DNA of 64,000 bases from assembly GCF_002854065.1 (NCBI RefSeq), contig NZ_CP024147.1. The stretch is one strand, 5' to 3'. Source of the DNA: Escherichia coli. GTDB taxonomy: Bacteria; Pseudomonadota; Gammaproteobacteria; Enterobacterales; Enterobacteriaceae. Below, piece after piece: positions 23,987 through 32,667 of the stretch; positions within the stretch are counted from its first letter, which is position 1, and every line of letters starts with the position of its first letter. A program made the translations under genes and the position numbers. Below the pieces are notes generated by a model that had not been told where the DNA came from, did no database searches, and saw only the letters and a program-made list of their open reading frames with translations.

Positions 23987-25192
23987 TTGAGCAAGACACC
24001 ACTCACAGCAAAGGCCATCGCAGCCGCGCAGCCAAAAGACAAGCCCTATAAACTCACCGATTCACTGACGCCAGGACTGTTTTTGCTGGTGCATCCCAAC
24101 GGCAGCAAATACTGGCGATTCAGGTATTGGTTGAATAAACGAGAGTTTTTGCAGGCCATTGGTGTTTACCCGCTAATCACACTCAAAGAAGCACGCAGAC
24201 GCGCCACAGAGAGCCGATCTCTGATTGCTAATGGAATTAATCCAGTGGAAGAAGCACGCAAGGAAAAAGCCATTGATGCGCTCAACATGGCGGCAGGTTT
24301 TAAGACGGTAGCGGAGGACTGGCTGGCTACCAGGGTCAGCGGGTGGTCAGAGTCCTACACGAAACAGGTTAGATCGGCACTGGAAAAAGATGTTTACCCC
24401 GTGCTGGGGAAGCGGTCAATTGTCGATATAACGGCCCGTGACGTGCTGGAATTGCTTCAGAAGAAAGAGCGTACCGCACCGGAACAAGCCAGGAAGCTAC
24501 GCCAGCGTATCGGGGAGATCTTCAAATTTGCCGTTATCACCGAACTGGTGGCAAGAAATCCGGTTGCAGATCTGAACACAGCACTAAAAGCCCGCCGTCC
24601 GGGCCACAACGCATGGCTGCAAATTAACGAAATTCAGGCGTTCTATGAAGCACTTGAGAGAGCCGGGAGCGTCCAGATTCAGACGGCAATACGTTTGCTC
24701 ATATTGAGCGCTCTAAGGACGGTGGAACTGCGTAAAATGCGCTGGGAATGGGTTAACCTGGAAGACGCGATCATCACCCTACCCGCTGAAGTCATGAAGG
24801 CCCGTCGCCCGCATGTGGTCCCGCTATCACGGCAGGCGGTAGAGCTATTGCAGGACCAGTTTACTCGCACCGGATACAGCGCTTTCGTCTTCCCTGGTCG
24901 ATTCATGGATAAGCCCTTGTCTGCCAGCGCGATACTGAAAGCCCTGGAGCGTATCGGATACAAGTCGATAGCCACAGCACACGGCTGGCGTACAACGTTC
25001 AGCACGACGCTTAACGAGTCCGGCAGGTACTCACCAGACTGGATTGAAATCCAATTGGCCCACGTCCCGAAGGGTGTACGCGGTGTATATAACCAGGCGG
25101 CCTATCTCAAACAGCGCCGTCAAATGCTTCAGGACTACGCCGACGCCATTGATTCAATACTGGCTGGTGAAGGTAATCCGCTGGAACCGTGA
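23987..25192 (+). CDS. intZ: P4-type tyrosine integrase of a prophage remnant (TTG start)
   Basis: 401-aa ORF with N-terminal P4-integrase arm motif (KLTDSLTPGLFLLVHPNGSKYWRFRYW) and C-terminal tyrosine-recombinase core; K-12 has intZ next to eutB. Confidence 0.8.
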   Translation: MSKTPLTAKAIAAAQPKDKPYKLTDSLTPGLFLLVHPNGSKYWRFRYWLNKREFLQAIGVYPLITLKEARRRATESRSLIANGINPVEEARKEKAIDALNMAAGFKTVAEDWLATRVSGWSESYTKQVRSALEKDVYPVLGKRSIVDITARDVLELLQKKERTAPEQARKLRQRIGEIFKFAVITELVARNPVADLNTALKARRPGHNAWLQINEIQAFYEALERAGSVQIQTAIRLLILSALRTVELRKMRWEWVNLEDAIITLPAEVMKARRPHVVPLSRQAVELLQDQFTRTGYSAFVFPGRFMDKPLSASAILKALERIGYKSIATAHGWRTTFSTTLNESGRYSPDWIEIQLAHVPKGVRGVYNQAAYLKQRRQMLQDYADAIDSILAGEGNPLEP

Positions 25193-26186: not shown

Positions 26187-26194
26187 TCACACTA

Positions 26195-26220
26195 GGCGGG
26201 CAATGTTCCCGCCTTTTCTT
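26195..26220 (+). terminator. Rho-independent terminator after the 255-aa ORF
   Basis: Stem ggcggg / cccgcc with 7-nt loop followed by ttttctt. Confidence 0.5.
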
Positions 26221-26243
26221 TGCCTCAATCCTATAAAATTCAC

Positions 26244-26282
26244 ATCCCGAAAATCGGTATCTGGGTATCCCGAAAATCGGTA
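26244..26282. repeat. Two perfect 16-bp direct repeats ATCCCGAAAATCGGTA with 23-bp period
   Basis: Copies at 26244-26259 and 26267-26282, immediately followed by an AT-rich tract. Confidence 0.7.
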
Positions 26283-27668
26283 AGTAATAATAAGTATTAT
26301 CCTTAAAGGTAAAAACCATATAAGTAAGATCTATCTCTTCAAGAATGTATATATTCACTACGTTCATATATACATGAGAAGTTTCCCTTTCATGCAGTCA
26401 AAACTACATTCATCAGCATCGCTTTCTGCGCTCTCCTTCCCAGCAAGCTGGAAAGGCCCATTCACTCACGCACAACCTGCAAACCAGACCAACATACCAT
26501 CATGGCGATTCGTTCATGGGTAGCGCGGGTATATCTCAAAGGGTGATTTCTTCTTGGTGGACCTTCGGAAGACTTCGAGCAATCGCCAGCTCAAAAGACG
26601 GTCTGGCAGTGATGGTTATCATCGACAGCATTGAGCGCTACCGCGCCAACTTACAGCAGCAGGATAACTACCGAAGGAAAACCCACGCCGAAAGGGATTG
26701 ACTCACTGCAAAGCCAATGGGTTTTATCAGCGTATACAGACCAGACAGGAAACAGCAGCAAAGCAGCGTATAGCCAGGTGCAGACAGTACCATCACACAA
26801 CGCACAGCAGGCTGAGGTGAACACTCAAACAGGTTTATCCCCGCAGCCGACCAACGCAAACCATCCTGACCGTGCCAAATTCGAACGGAATGGTGCCTGT
26901 AACGCGATGAACACATATAACCGCTTACTTGCTTACCTGAAAACTTCACGTCGCCACAGAGCGATTTAGACGCATTATAATTGATGCGATTTCATTAAAT
27001 TTTCACCAGACACCGGAACAACGCCGATTAATCCAGGAATGGATTCATCGACATGCGCCGCTTTCCCCGCAGAACAGTCTCGCCTGAATAGTCTCACCAA
27101 CCAGATTTCAGATTGTCCAATCAGGCACGTCTCATTAAACGACAGAATGCGGCCTACAACGCCATCGCTGCCGATCTCGTTTGAGCAAGGTGCTGAGACT
27201 GAATGACGGACGCCCACTCCTCAGAGCTGAGGAATCGCCACACAGAACGCTGAGATCTGATATTACCGCCGCACCATTCCACGCCAGACGAATCAATCTA
27301 ATCACACCTGAGCAAATGCATTGCCAAAAATTAAGGCCGTCAGAATGCGTTATATTGCGTTTAAACGGCATCTAATTTTAATTAGTTTTGATGTGGTGAT
27401 TGCAGGCAAAAAAAATCCCGCCGGAGAGAGCGGGGAAGTGAAATCAATCGTTGTAGTTATAGATCACATTTTGAGTAAGGGTTACCAGCCCTTGAGTAAT
27501 ATTATCCCTGTATTACGTGAGATGCGCAATTATTTTTTGCTAATTAAAAGTTTTGTAAACATTACAGAATATCCCCTTTCCCTATATGGTAAAAGATGTG
27601 AAACAGGGACATGAGGAATATAATATTAAGTATCAACAGTAATGTTGGTCTTTAATTTCATTCAGGGC

Positions 27669-27710
27669 GCGGTGAGGGTTTTCCCATATTTTTCCTCACC
27701 GCTACTTTTT
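27669..27710 (+). terminator. Terminator/attenuator-like hairpin in the leader of the AlpA-like gene
   Basis: Perfect 9-bp stem gcggtgagg (27669-27677) / cctcaccgc (27694-27702), 16-nt loop, T5 run at 27706-27710. Confidence 0.4.
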
Positions 27711-27721
27711 GAGGTGAGAAC

Positions 27722-27913
27722 ATGAATGATAGCGAATTAATGACGGTGAGCGAGGTAGCCGCTTTATTCGGCGTTACCCGACGCACTATATTCCGCTGGC
27801 TGAACAAGATTAAAGGTTGGCCCGTTCCGGTTACTCCGGTCGGTGCACGAATTAAGTTTATCCGATCTGAGATTTTGGAATTCTATAAAAACAAAGGCGC
27901 TCGCCACCAATGA
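27722..27913 (+). CDS. AlpA/excisionase-family helix-turn-helix prophage regulator
   Basis: 63-aa ORF MNDSELMTVSEVAALFGVTRRTIFRWLNK; HTH typical of prophage AlpA/Xis-type regulators; SD gaggtga 6 nt upstream. Confidence 0.7.
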   Translation: MNDSELMTVSEVAALFGVTRRTIFRWLNKIKGWPVPVTPVGARIKFIRSEILEFYKNKGARHQ

Positions 27914-27989
27914 AAACAGCTACTGAGATTATCAAATAACCTATTGATTTAATAAGCTAGCTACCGCAATTTCTGAAGGAATAGGCAGC

Positions 27990-28316
27990 ATGAAAATCAA
28001 AGCAAACACAATTAAAGAAATAACATCAATCAAAGTAAAAGGAGCAGATGCCATGCATTCATTAGACAGTTATTTTCAGCGCACGACAGCCCCTAAATCA
28101 GCCGCCCAGGAACGCCGTGAGGAATTCCAGGAAAAAGTGATGCGTTCTGCTGATTATATTGCGGACAAGTTCGTGGAAACGGTTCGGCCACTTGTTGATG
28201 AAGTAGCTGATAAACTTCAGTCTGAAATGCCGGAAGACATGGAAGGCACTGCAAAGGCGCGACTCCTTTTTGAATTAAGTCGTCGTTTCGGCGTGTCAAT
28301 AAGCACTTTTAAATAA
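27990..28316 (+). CDS. Hypothetical prophage protein (108 aa; may start at internal Met)
   Basis: ORF in co-directional tight cassette; no recognisable motif. Confidence 0.45.
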   Translation: MKIKANTIKEITSIKVKGADAMHSLDSYFQRTTAPKSAAQERREEFQEKVMRSADYIADKFVETVRPLVDEVADKLQSEMPEDMEGTAKARLLFELSRRFGVSISTFK

Positions 28317-28876: not shown

Positions 28877-28927
28877 TCGGATAAAAGAAAGCCGGGAATT
28901 ACCCCGGCTGACTTAACAATGTGACCA

Positions 28928-29859: not shown

Positions 29860-32040
29860 ATGAGTGGAAATCTCGGGACCATATACTACGAGGTCGATGC
29901 CCGCACTGGGAAACTTCTTATCGCGCAACAGCAGGCGGAAGAGGCGTTCGATCGCATTGAACGAGGAGCGCGGAAGGCTGATAGCGGCGTCAAAAAGTTA
30001 AATACGCAGATGACTAAAACATCAGCCGCAGTCAAAACCAACCTTTCCCCGGCAATCCGTAACGCATCATACCAGATCGCAGACCTTGCCACTCAATTGC
30101 AGATGGGCGGTAATGCGCTTCAGGCGTTCGCTGTGCAGGGTGCGCAGTTATTAGCTGGCTTTGGCACGATGGGCGCGGTAGCTGGCGCGGTGCTGGCTAT
30201 CGCTGGCGCTATGGGTGGAAGCCTGGCACAAGGCGCTGATAGTGCAGCCGGATCGGTTGAGTATCTGGACAAGGCGATCACCAAACTGAACGAGGTCATA
30301 GCTGTAAATGAACAGGGCGTGACGGTGATGAGTGATAGTTACGCCAGACTTTCTAAGGTTAACGCTGAAGTAGCGAAACAGATGCGGAACATGGCTGAAA
30401 TTCAGGCAATTGCAGCACTGCGTGACCTGAAAGAACAGGCAAGCCAGGCACAGGGGGAAATGTCGTCATTCTGGCGCAGCTTGCAGGGTGGTAAAGCTGA
30501 CGCAGCAGCAGCAGCACAGGCACTTGATGATCTTGGAATCACAACCAACGACTACAAAGAGGCGATAGCCATACTGAACGCCAATCAGCCGGATACACAG
30601 GCGCAAATGGCAACGCTAGCCAAATCCGTGATGTATGTTGGAGAGCAATATGATCTGACCAACCAGCAAGCATACGAATTTATACGCGCACTAAATAAGG
30701 CCGCGACAACGAAAACGCCGGAAGCCATGCAGGAGCTATCTGGCTTCATGCAGGTTTTGCTTCAGGATACCGAAAACGGTAACGAGGCATTCCGTGAACT
30801 GGCTATCAAATTCGTCGATGCACAAACCAAAGGCGCAATGTTGGAGGACCAACTAAACCGACTGAAAGGCGCTATTAGTGACGCAGCCACAGAAGCCAGA
30901 AACGCAAACTTTACCACTATGCTCAACACCGTCGCCGCACGCCTGGCAACCATTGAGCAAGGTTGGGAGGCAGGCGTTAGGATGCAGATGAAAGCCCAGG
31001 GCTACACTGAAGAGCAGATCGATGAATATGTGAACATGGAAACGGCGTACCGTGATGCAAAAGCCGCTTTGGACGAGAAGAACAAGGCCGACCGTGAAGC
31101 TATTGCGCTATCCAAACGCCAGGCCGCAGAAGCAGCCCGCAAGGCAAAACAGGAAGAAGCTGAAGCACAACGCAAGGCCAAACAGTTAGCCGCGCAGAAG
31201 GAGCAGGCAGGACGCTTTACGCAGCAAGTAATGACGGAATACCTGACGACCGTAGATCCGGCAACAGGCAAGGCGTTTAACCCTGCCGCACAAGTAGAAA
31301 TGCAGGAGCAGCAGAAGAAAGCGGCGCTGGATAAATACAGACAGTTGGGCGTCCTGGATGAACAGCAGTACCAGAACACGCTAACCGCCATCCAGAAAAC
31401 CGCGTCAATGCGCCGCCAGCAAATCATCAAAGACGAGGCCGACACGTTATTCAACAATCAGCAACAGTTGATCGGCACATTTGGCGATTTCTTCGGTGAA
31501 CTGTCTGGAGTCATAGCAGACGGTGCAGGTGAGCAAAACGCGGCATATCAAGCGCTATTTGCTGTGCAGAAGGGTTTTGTATTGGCATCAGCAGCTTTAA
31601 GCCTTCAGAAAGCGCTTGCTGAGGCAAACGCCTTGCCTTTCCCGGCTAATCTTCCGGCCTATGCGCAAGCTATGTCAGCAGGTACGCAGATCATTTCAGC
31701 TATTCGTGGAATAGCTTTCGGTGGCGGACGCTACAACGGCGGCGCGGTTGGTGCTGGCAACCTGTACCGCGTGGGTGAACACGGTAAGCCTGAGATATTC
31801 AAGGCGAACAATGGCAGCCAGTACATGATCCCAGGTGATAACGGTCGCGTGATAAGTAATCGTGACATTGGCGGCGGTGGCGGCGTAACAATCAACAGCC
31901 CGATCACCATTAACACTACGAATGGCTTCAGTGATGAAGACTCAAGGCGTCTTGAGGAAGCGATGAAGCGCGTAGCTATGGGCGTTTGCAGGCAGGAGTC
32001 AACCAGACCGGGAGGAATGTTAGCCCCGCGCCGTCGTTAA
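29860..32040 (+). CDS. Phage tail tape-measure-like protein
   Basis: 726-aa Ala/Gln-rich mostly helical ORF with glycine-rich hydrophobic N-terminal segment, long coiled-coil region (AEAARKAKQEEAEAQRKAKQLAAQKEQ) and C-terminal Gly-rich motif GGGRYNGGAVGAGNLYRVGEHG resembling the lambda gpH C-terminus as recalled. Confidence 0.65.
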   Translation: MSGNLGTIYYEVDARTGKLLIAQQQAEEAFDRIERGARKADSGVKKLNTQMTKTSAAVKTNLSPAIRNASYQIADLATQLQMGGNALQAFAVQGAQLLAGFGTMGAVAGAVLAIAGAMGGSLAQGADSAAGSVEYLDKAITKLNEVIAVNEQGVTVMSDSYARLSKVNAEVAKQMRNMAEIQAIAALRDLKEQASQAQGEMSSFWRSLQGGKADAAAAAQALDDLGITTNDYKEAIAILNANQPDTQAQMATLAKSVMYVGEQYDLTNQQAYEFIRALNKAATTKTPEAMQELSGFMQVLLQDTENGNEAFRELAIKFVDAQTKGAMLEDQLNRLKGAISDAATEARNANFTTMLNTVAARLATIEQGWEAGVRMQMKAQGYTEEQIDEYVNMETAYRDAKAALDEKNKADREAIALSKRQAAEAARKAKQEEAEAQRKAKQLAAQKEQAGRFTQQVMTEYLTTVDPATGKAFNPAAQVEMQEQQKKAALDKYRQLGVLDEQQYQNTLTAIQKTASMRRQQIIKDEADTLFNNQQQLIGTFGDFFGELSGVIADGAGEQNAAYQALFAVQKGFVLASAALSLQKALAEANALPFPANLPAYAQAMSAGTQIISAIRGIAFGGGRYNGGAVGAGNLYRVGEHGKPEIFKANNGSQYMIPGDNGRVISNRDIGGGGGVTINSPITINTTNGFSDEDSRRLEEAMKRVAMGVCRQESTRPGGMLAPRRR

Positions 32041-32163
32041 CCAAATCCCACGCCAGGGGAACAGACTGGCGGACCTTCAAAGACGGTCGCACACCGTGTT
32101 TGACATAATTTATTGTTTTTTGCTTGCTCTTATTATTGCAGCCGTTAGGGTAATGACTCCAAC

Positions 32164-32667
32164 TTATTGATAGTGTTTTATGTTCAGATAATGCCCGATG
32201 ACTTTGTCATGCAGCTCCACCGATTTTGAGAACGACAGCGACTTCCGTCCCAGCCGTGCCAGGTGCTGCCTCAGATTCAGGTTATGCCGCTCAATTCGCT
32301 GCGTATATCGCTTGCTGATTACGTGCAGCTTTCCCTTCAGGCGGGATTCATACAGCGGCCAGCCATCCGTCATCCATATCACCACGTCAAAGGGTGACAG
32401 CAGGCTCATAAGACGCCCCAGCGTCGCCATAGTGCGTTCACCGAATACGTGCGCAACAACCGTCTTCCGGAGACTGTCATACGCGTAAAACAGCCAGCGC
32501 TGGCGCGATTTAGCCCCGACGTATCCCCACTGTTCGTCCATTTCCGCGCAGACGATGACGTCACTGCCCGGCTGTATGCGCGAGGTTACCGACTGCGGCC
32601 TGAGTTTTTTAAATGGCGGAAAATCGTGTTGAGGCCAACGCCCATAATGCGGGCGGTTGCCCGGCAT
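32164..32667 (-). CDS. insB: IS1 InsB reading frame (expressed as InsAB transposase by -1 frameshift)
   Basis: 167-aa ORF overlapping the insA 3-prime end in the -1 frame, classic IS1 organisation. Confidence 0.85.

Follow-up and report, generated by a model that had tools for sequence, protein, structure and literature searches.

A single-copy RNA hairpin in the leader of a CPZ-55-family satellite operon, possibly a leaky terminator

There is nothing unusual in a mobile-element regulator whose leader carries a terminator, and the hairpin described here is a new, unannotated instance of such a leader signal. Phage late operons, for instance, have intrinsic terminators close to their promoters, as in lambda, where PR' is followed by tR' with a short '6S' transcript, and in Stx phages, with StxS. 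Other familiar leader signals are the classical attenuators of trp and pyrBI, as well as the 5′ UTR elements that sequester the Shine-Dalgarno (SD) sequence, such as the fourU and ROSE thermometers and anti-SD hairpins.

Closer to the present case are systems found in satellites and in elements regulated by AlpA. In Pseudomonas aeruginosa, AlpA acts by processive antitermination, bypassing terminators that lie immediately upstream of the genes it switches on (PMC7969949, PMC9371919). The immunity of satellite P4 involves the segments seqA, seqB and seqC, the CI RNA and premature termination, and E. coli satellites have been reported to carry immunity RNAs (PMC10111431). In the PICIs of E. coli, AlpA is known to stimulate its own expression, and alpA is induced by helper phages through an unidentified route (PMC6092414).

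The satellite and the surroundings of its rightward operon

The window, that is, the whole stretch of 64,000 nucleotides that was analysed, is E. coli chromosome, and the island of interest adjoins eutB, where K-12 has its cryptic prophage CPZ-55. An intact relative (L066) is a 13-kb element between eutB and eutA whose rightward operon has a small-terminase-like gene (PF20901); in relatives, this operon also includes an HNH gene. For this reason, the CPZ-55-family element is read as a small phage satellite, of which the window carries a truncated copy. At its truncated end (29860-32667) lie a gene for a 726-aa tape-measure-like protein, IS1 and maeB, and the genes from eutA to eutS, which are present in K-12 and in L066, are missing. 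CPZ-55 of K-12 shares the integrase and about 200 bp with this island and is devoid of this leader; thus, K-12 transcript maps do not help. A literature search found no paper on the regulation of CPZ-55-type elements. The following features are referred to below:

23987-25192: intZ-like integrase.
Plus strand: gene of 255 aa with its own canonical terminator at 26194-26214 (discriminant d = +9.6), then two iteron-like repeats.
27408-27527, minus strand: sRNA-like unit, about 120 nt long and divergent with respect to the HTH leader, with a promoter-like sequence at 27559..27532 and a terminator at 27434..27417 followed by U8.
27619-27624, plus strand: putative -10 element TATAAT of the HTH-operon promoter (TAAAAT in L020 and in type II leaders).
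27634-27647, plus strand: small 5′ hairpin CAACA-GUAA-UGUUG seen in minimum free energy (MFE) folds, kept in type I variants and absent from type II.
27642-27725, plus strand: upstream open reading frame (uORF) of 27 codons that runs through the hairpin, has no SD and overlaps the start of the HTH gene at ATGA.
27669-27677, plus strand: 5′ arm A of the hairpin, gcggtgagg (GCGGUGAGG); 27669..27678 with G27678.
27679-27692, plus strand: loop UUUUCCCAUAUUUU, long and pyrimidine-rich in the folds.
27694-27702, plus strand: 3′ arm B, cctcaccgc (U+CCUCACCGC); 27693..27702 with U27693.
27703-27710, plus strand: tail UACUUUUU, that is, tac and then U5 at 27706-27710, the candidate termination point.
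27711-27718, plus strand: Shine-Dalgarno sequence GAGGUGAG; its segment C, ggtgag at 27713-27718, lies inside GAGGTGAG.
27722-27913, plus strand: gene for a 63-aa HTH_17/excisionase-type protein, known from its open reading frame and profile matches, first of the satellite's rightward operon.
After the HTH gene: open reading frames of 108, 180, 124 and 76 aa, then the 726-aa protein matching tape-measure families, IS1 and maeB.

The first gene of the operon had been called AlpA-like in a sequence-only reading of the window. Its product is indeed a small excisionase-type HTH protein, but the AlpA label holds loosely. The best Pfam match is HTH_17 (3.9e-8), while Phage_AlpA (PF05930), weak in some members, reaches E ≤0.001 in one of 11 members of the family; the NCBIfam 'excise' profile scores 25.6 bits, below its cut-off of 28.8. 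Homologues are named 'AlpA family' in some sources. A comparison of the 63-aa protein with solved structures gave nothing significant, and no AlpA entry was among the matches. A word-based search placed the members of the protein family in E. coli only, at 70-90% identity.

Between the iteron-like repeats and the HTH gene lies about 1.1 kb in which no open reading frame is credible as a gene. In practical terms, the region from the 255-aa gene to the HTH gene (26187-27721) should be annotated as regulatory RNA and DNA rather than as coding sequence. The repeats are two exact 16-bp direct copies of ATCCCGAAAATCGGTA, 23 bp apart, after the terminator of the 255-aa gene (within 26194-26282, plus strand); four different iterons occupy the same relative place in CPZ-55 of K-12, and the repeats of 26194-26282 look like a likely replication origin. 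In a few genomes, PGAP places an 89-aa 'hypothetical protein' at 27345-27614 on the plus strand, overlapping the sRNA-like unit. Its variants differ by 1-nt indels, and this protein is probably spurious and not a gene. Further downstream, between the 180-aa and 124-aa genes, there is a good terminator-like hairpin on the minus strand (28890-28909, d = +22.8), with nothing obvious transcribed leftward into it.

The divergent sRNA-like unit may be more interesting than the leader hairpin. Its central stem-loop (27477-27493) occurs in relatives as three unrelated stem alleles, AAGGG/CCCUU, GAGGAU/AUCCUC and UAACAC/GUGUUA, and the G-C-to-G.U and U-A-to-U.G variants of the conserved enclosing helix GAUAAUAUU/AAAUGUGAUC fit the minus strand only. 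The fold of the whole RNA is no more stable than those of shuffled sequences (z -0.04), and the unit has no match in Rfam. Pairing of this RNA with the leader or the operon was considered and rejected, as duplex energies were no better than those of shuffles and cognate pairs were not preferred. Searches for its partners gave no complement of more than 9 nt in the operon, no second copy of the variable stem-loop and no target in the element. In one metagenomic relative (L050), a deletion equivalent to 27233-27524 removes the body of the unit and keeps the leader.

A -10-like TATAAT or TAAAAT is conserved about 50 nt upstream of the hairpin, which would place the transcription start at about 27630-27632. 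A consensus promoter scan did not call this promoter, whose -35 is poor. Together with the conserved block just upstream, the TATAAT suggests a promoter with a poor -35 that is perhaps dependent on an activator. Two tandem 10-bp repeats, ATGGTAAAAG and ATGTGAAACA, lie at the -35 position (27586-27605, plus strand) in a block conserved between types I and II, and they are a possible activator site. The palindrome TAATATTA occurs twice, at 27497-27505, inside the sRNA-like unit, and at 27620-27628, overlapping the putative -10, and both copies are conserved in relatives. Since the 255-aa gene has a separate terminator and the conserved -10 lies upstream, the hairpin is within a leader, and not at the end of a gene, in leader types I and II.

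A stable hairpin kept in three types of leader

Arm B is the exact reverse complement of arm A, forming a perfect 9-bp inverted repeat that was also listed independently in an inverted-repeat search, and an extra G27678.U27693 pair can extend the stem. Arm A resembles an SD sequence, while arm B contains the anti-SD CUCACC, so that ctcacc (27695-27700) is also complementary to the ggtgag of the SD (27713-27718). The positions given in the sequence-only reading for both arms, the T5 run, the SD and the ATG proved exact when read from the sequence, and its proposal of a terminator-like hairpin followed by a U-run directly 5′ of the HTH gene is supported. The 81-nt stretch that it put forward for folding has an MFE of -25.5 kcal/mol (z -3.79, none of 200 shuffles as good), with A:B as the core of the fold. 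The hairpin and its tail alone reach -18.2 kcal/mol (z -4.83, none of 500 shuffles as good), and the same architecture is kept in relatives with other stems. Thus, A:B is a genuine RNA hairpin in untranslated RNA directly upstream of the HTH gene.

A repeat of this kind is not rare in itself. Perfect 9-bp inverted repeats with loops of at most 20 nt occur about five times per 64 kb in shuffled sequence, and the real window holds 39 overlapping ones (about 17 loci). The weight of the argument therefore rests on the position of the hairpin, on its U-run and on its conservation. No Rfam family matched at its gathering score anywhere in the 64-kb window, and permissive searches of 26900-28000 (E up to 10) and of 27380-27760 (E up to 1) gave nothing significant. 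A REP-like repeated element was ruled out, as there is one copy per genome and the arms are not enriched in the window. The loop is complementary to 27584-27594; roughly estimated, chance alone would supply about 0.7 pairs of this kind.

Leaders were collected from complete genomes, from Logan and NCBI contigs and from metagenomes, and they fall into three types. The type I hairpin, that of the window, is present in 142 of 5426 complete E. coli genomes, in one copy each and always beside the HTH gene, with a nearly invariant stem GCGGUGAGG/CCUCACCGC. It is thus single-copy and specific to the CPZ-55-family satellite next to eutB. In type II, the stem is CCGCCUCCAGG/CCUGGGGGCGG, with a CU-rich loop of 14-28 nt followed by UUCUUUUU, and folds have z values of -4.25 (L025), -3.8 (L060) and -1.8 (the bulged L021). 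Type III, found in a related island at rssA, has the stem GCCGCUAGG/CCUGGUGGC, a 29-nt CU-rich loop and then GAUC with U7-8 (z -2.5). Despite these differences, a U-run of at least five residues comes 0-5 nt after the stem in every type and abuts GAGGUG and the ATG. GAGGTG is invariant in all relatives, and all leader types share, without variation, the T-run of at least five beside the stem. The loops carry indels. No further usable leaders came from a genome contig scan with the 63-aa protein, which gave only remote actinobacterial and MAG matches; a viral contig pattern scan returned chance matches only, and no INPHARED phage record matches the region.

Substitutions in the stems tend to preserve pairing. 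In the alignment of types II and III, eight stem pairs are 90.6% paired, as compared with 44-70% when the partner is slid. Between these two types, six of the eight aligned pairs are kept: four are invariant, one changes from C-G to U.G (one side) and one from U.G to G.U (both sides), while the two outer pairs are lost in type III. Likewise, the variant L020 has an A-to-G change after which the two bases still pair, as G.U, and a U-to-C change by which a G-C pair is gained. In strain WS3294A (L068), by contrast, an uncompensated G-to-A change at the equivalent of 27671 leaves an A.C mismatch in the arm A stem. This covariation rests on very few independent evolutionary events. Nevertheless, changes that tolerate wobble pairs point to RNA pairing rather than to a DNA palindrome, and, together with the recurrence of a stem and U-run before the SD with different stems, they support a functional RNA hairpin.

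Type III differs in what lies upstream. In L016 (2206-2500), a 66-aa Phage_AlpA gene directly precedes the hairpin and a 62-aa homologue of the HTH protein, giving two small HTH genes with a terminator-like hairpin between them. The hairpin lies about 25 nt after the stop codon of the AlpA gene, which is the usual place for a terminator. The 66-aa AlpA has a weak match to the solved 'AlpA family' protein 8c3t (E 0.007).

Termination, competing folds and other readings

The stem has the length and stability of an intrinsic terminator: the 9-10 bp of type I fold with the z of -4.8 given above, and the stems of types II and III have 9-11 bp. The loop does not, as intrinsic terminators usually have loops of 3-8 nt, and the leaders have loops of 14-16 nt (type I) or 14-29 nt (types II and III). 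Consequently, a consensus terminator scan with a loop limit of 8 nt did not call the site. By a d'Aubenton-Carafa-type formula, the discriminant is -17 for the leader in the window and -3 to -65 in relatives, while the gene-end terminators of the same window score +9 to +45 by the same formula; the leader hairpin thus falls short of a positive score. The tails (UACUUUUU in type I, UUCUUUUU in type II and GAUCUUUUUUUU in type III) score 1.4-3.7 across leader types, with 2.1-3.2 for the tail at 27703-27710, versus 4-5 for the gene-end terminators in the window, and the U-run is preceded by a spacer, UAC in type I and GAUC in type III. The long loops, the interrupted tail and the negative discriminant together indicate that the hairpin is at best a weak, leaky and sub-canonical intrinsic terminator.

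A weak terminator would fit the position of this hairpin. The U-run ends one base before the SD, which leaves no room for a promoter downstream, and transcripts of the HTH gene must therefore read through it; the gene is expressible only in this way. The reading that we prefer, with a probability of just under one half, is that A:B and its U-run act as a weak (leaky) intrinsic terminator or attenuator in the leader of the rightward operon of CPZ-55-family satellites. RNA polymerase would partly stop at the U-run after A:B has formed, and any transcription of the HTH gene and of the genes that follow would have to pass the hairpin, so that a leaky stop would hold basal expression of the operon low. 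In the transcripts that do read through, the anti-SD arm B would stay inside A:B, leaving the ribosome-binding site (RBS) free of occlusion by B.

This last point bears on the switch that had been put forward from the letters of the sequence, in which A:B, as terminator, and B:C, as occluder of the SD, are mutually exclusive folds. Both complementarities are present, and B:C folds at -10.3 kcal/mol in isolation and appears when A is forced single-stranded. In the ensemble of the full leader, however, A:B has a pair probability of 1.0 versus 0.001 for B:C, and opening A costs about 11 kcal/mol (-36.4 vs -25.4). In addition, A and B are transcribed before C, which means that A:B forms first, and, with C placed beyond the U-run, B:C cannot serve as an antiterminator. 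No upstream partner for arm A that could serve as a cis antiterminator was seen on reading the leader sequence. In type I, 3% of shuffles that preserve the composition of the hairpin region also attain the six Watson-Crick pairs of B:C (p = 0.03, marginal), but in types II and III the complementarity between hairpin region and SD is no better than chance (p about 0.8, shuffle test), and an anti-SD arm as a conserved feature was ruled out there. B:C would form only when something else blocks A; if anything, A:B, which locks away segment B, holds the anti-SD off the SD in read-through transcripts. A two-fold switch is therefore very improbable, and the occlusion of the RBS by B finds no support, as B is paired with A in essentially the whole ensemble. 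Of the tight post-initiation control that had been proposed for this gene, the terminator-like fold keeps the general idea plausible, but not the two competing hairpins. A classical attenuator or riboswitch-type switch was rejected for the same lack of a competing antiterminator, and an SD-sequestering riboregulator because its anti-SD is not paired with the SD in the dominant fold and the complementarity is not conserved in relatives.

The conserved CU-rich loop and the U-run could instead bind a protein or an RNA, or enhance translation, and the loop is the main reason why a post-transcriptional role and an sRNA role are kept as rivals. In the former, translation or mRNA stability would be adjusted by the loop together with the U-run beside the SD, for example through binding of S1, Hfq or a cold-shock-type protein, through weak pairing of the U-run with the SD, or because the anti-SD is locked and the SD left free. 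The loop motifs UUUUCC and UUCCUC are indeed the most conserved sequence across the three types despite their differing stems, the terminator scores are negative, and the SD core is mostly paired in the ensemble (unpaired probability 0.15-0.24) through two small helices, UACUU:AGGUG and UCAUUCA:UGAAUGA, the latter over the start codon. Those helices are weak, though, and were not seen conserved in type II; no binding protein can be named from the sequence, and a stem beside a U-run that recurs with unrelated stems is a hallmark of intrinsic terminators, all of which makes this reading rather unlikely. The idea that the terminated leader is itself a regulatory sRNA of about 80 nt, akin to sRNAs derived from 5′ UTRs or to the short PR'-tR' transcripts of lambdoid phages, is clearly more doubtful. 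Its 5′ hairpin, A/U-rich linker, terminator hairpin with a conserved, CU-rich and anti-SD-like loop and U tail match the architecture of Hfq-type sRNAs, and there is a weak, non-significant Rfam match to LhrC over 27611-27709 (23.6 bits against a gathering score of 110, E 0.21). This match is far under threshold and comes from an unrelated phylum, and membership in the LhrC type was rejected, the resemblance being one of architecture only (5′ hairpin, linker and CU-rich-loop terminator hairpin). No target was identified, and an sRNA of this kind would need efficient termination, which the scores do not predict.

Ribosome-coupled attenuation, comparable to that of pyrBI or of P4 eta, would have translation of the uORF melt A:B, suppress termination and couple through ATGA into the HTH gene. 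In all type I and II variants, an ATG about 5-12 nt from the inferred start does open a reading frame across the hairpin, and these frames stop at +1 (ATGA), -7 or -15. The uORF is nevertheless without an SD, neither its frame nor its peptide is conserved, type III has no spanning frame, and a spanning ATG reading frame arises in 23% of dinucleotide shuffles, as a CU-rich leader has few stop codons. The uORF at 27642-27725 is thus probably fortuitous, and the coupling would be a highly doubtful mechanism. The reading with the least to recommend it, which is scarcely credible, takes the repeat as a DNA palindrome and operator for the HTH protein or another regulator. The arms are perfect over 9 bp and lie near a putative promoter, but a centre-to-centre spacing of 25 bp puts the half-sites off one helix face, the occurrence of the arms elsewhere in the window is not beyond chance, and changes compatible with G.U matter only in RNA. 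Moreover, all protein variants have one and the same recognition helix, TRRTIFRW, even though the leader types have entirely different arms; since the arms do not co-vary with the residues that read DNA, an operator of the HTH protein itself was ruled out.

The leader and known regulatory systems

Should transcription stop at the hairpin, read-through of a single short signal would gate the entire rightward operon of this satellite family, which would offer a simple handle on the silence of satellites and on their waking by helper phages. A more ambitious version of this idea makes the hairpin the stop signal of an antitermination-based induction switch in CPZ-55-family satellites, and it is a long shot. 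In the resting state, transcripts from a constitutive or weak promoter would end at the leader hairpin, and the short RNA with its CU-rich loop, together with the divergent 120-nt sRNA, would provide an RNA-based immunity. On induction, a helper-phage or island factor, similar to Q, N or AlpA, would drive read-through into the HTH, HNH and small-terminase operon. If true, this would be a concrete mechanism for the switching-on of Gram-negative satellites by helper phages, an open question in PMC6092414.

The comparison with known systems is of different value in each case. As in the trp and pyrBI attenuators, there is a terminator hairpin in a leader and a reading frame running through it; unlike in those leaders, no antiterminator partner for arm A is seen here, and the uORF has no SD and does not rise above chance. 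The leader also shares with fourU and ROSE elements a CCUC-containing segment and a U-run close to the SD, except that the anti-SD here pairs with A, and not with the SD, in essentially the whole ensemble. The likeness to P4 immunity lies in one segment that is complementary to two others, and in a terminator, within the leader of a satellite operon. In contrast to P4, all the segments here fall within 50 nt and fold into a single dominant hairpin, and the sRNA-like neighbour is divergent and not co-linear, with a complementarity to the leader that is not above that of shuffles. In addition, no immunity RNA of the P4/P1 C4/CI type was matched in the window at the Rfam gathering score, nor at E up to 10 in 26900-28000.

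Two comparisons are closer to a leaky leader terminator. In P. aeruginosa, a small HTH protein of the AlpA/excisionase type is associated with intrinsic terminators, as it is here with a putative one, and type III has a true Phage_AlpA just upstream of the hairpin. Here, by contrast, the hairpin of types I and II stands before the HTH gene itself, and no binding element for AlpA was identified. The lambda PR'-tR' region belongs to a lambdoid phage rather than to a 13-kb satellite, and the satellite leader has a sub-canonical hairpin and neither an identified Q-like antiterminator nor a Q-binding element. Nevertheless, both share a terminator-like hairpin and U-run shortly after a promoter, a putative one in the satellite, and before a long unidirectional operon, which in the relatives of this satellite contains packaging genes, and in both read-through is required to reach that operon. 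For the induction of alpA by helper phages in the PICIs of E. coli, a leader terminator might offer a natural point of control.
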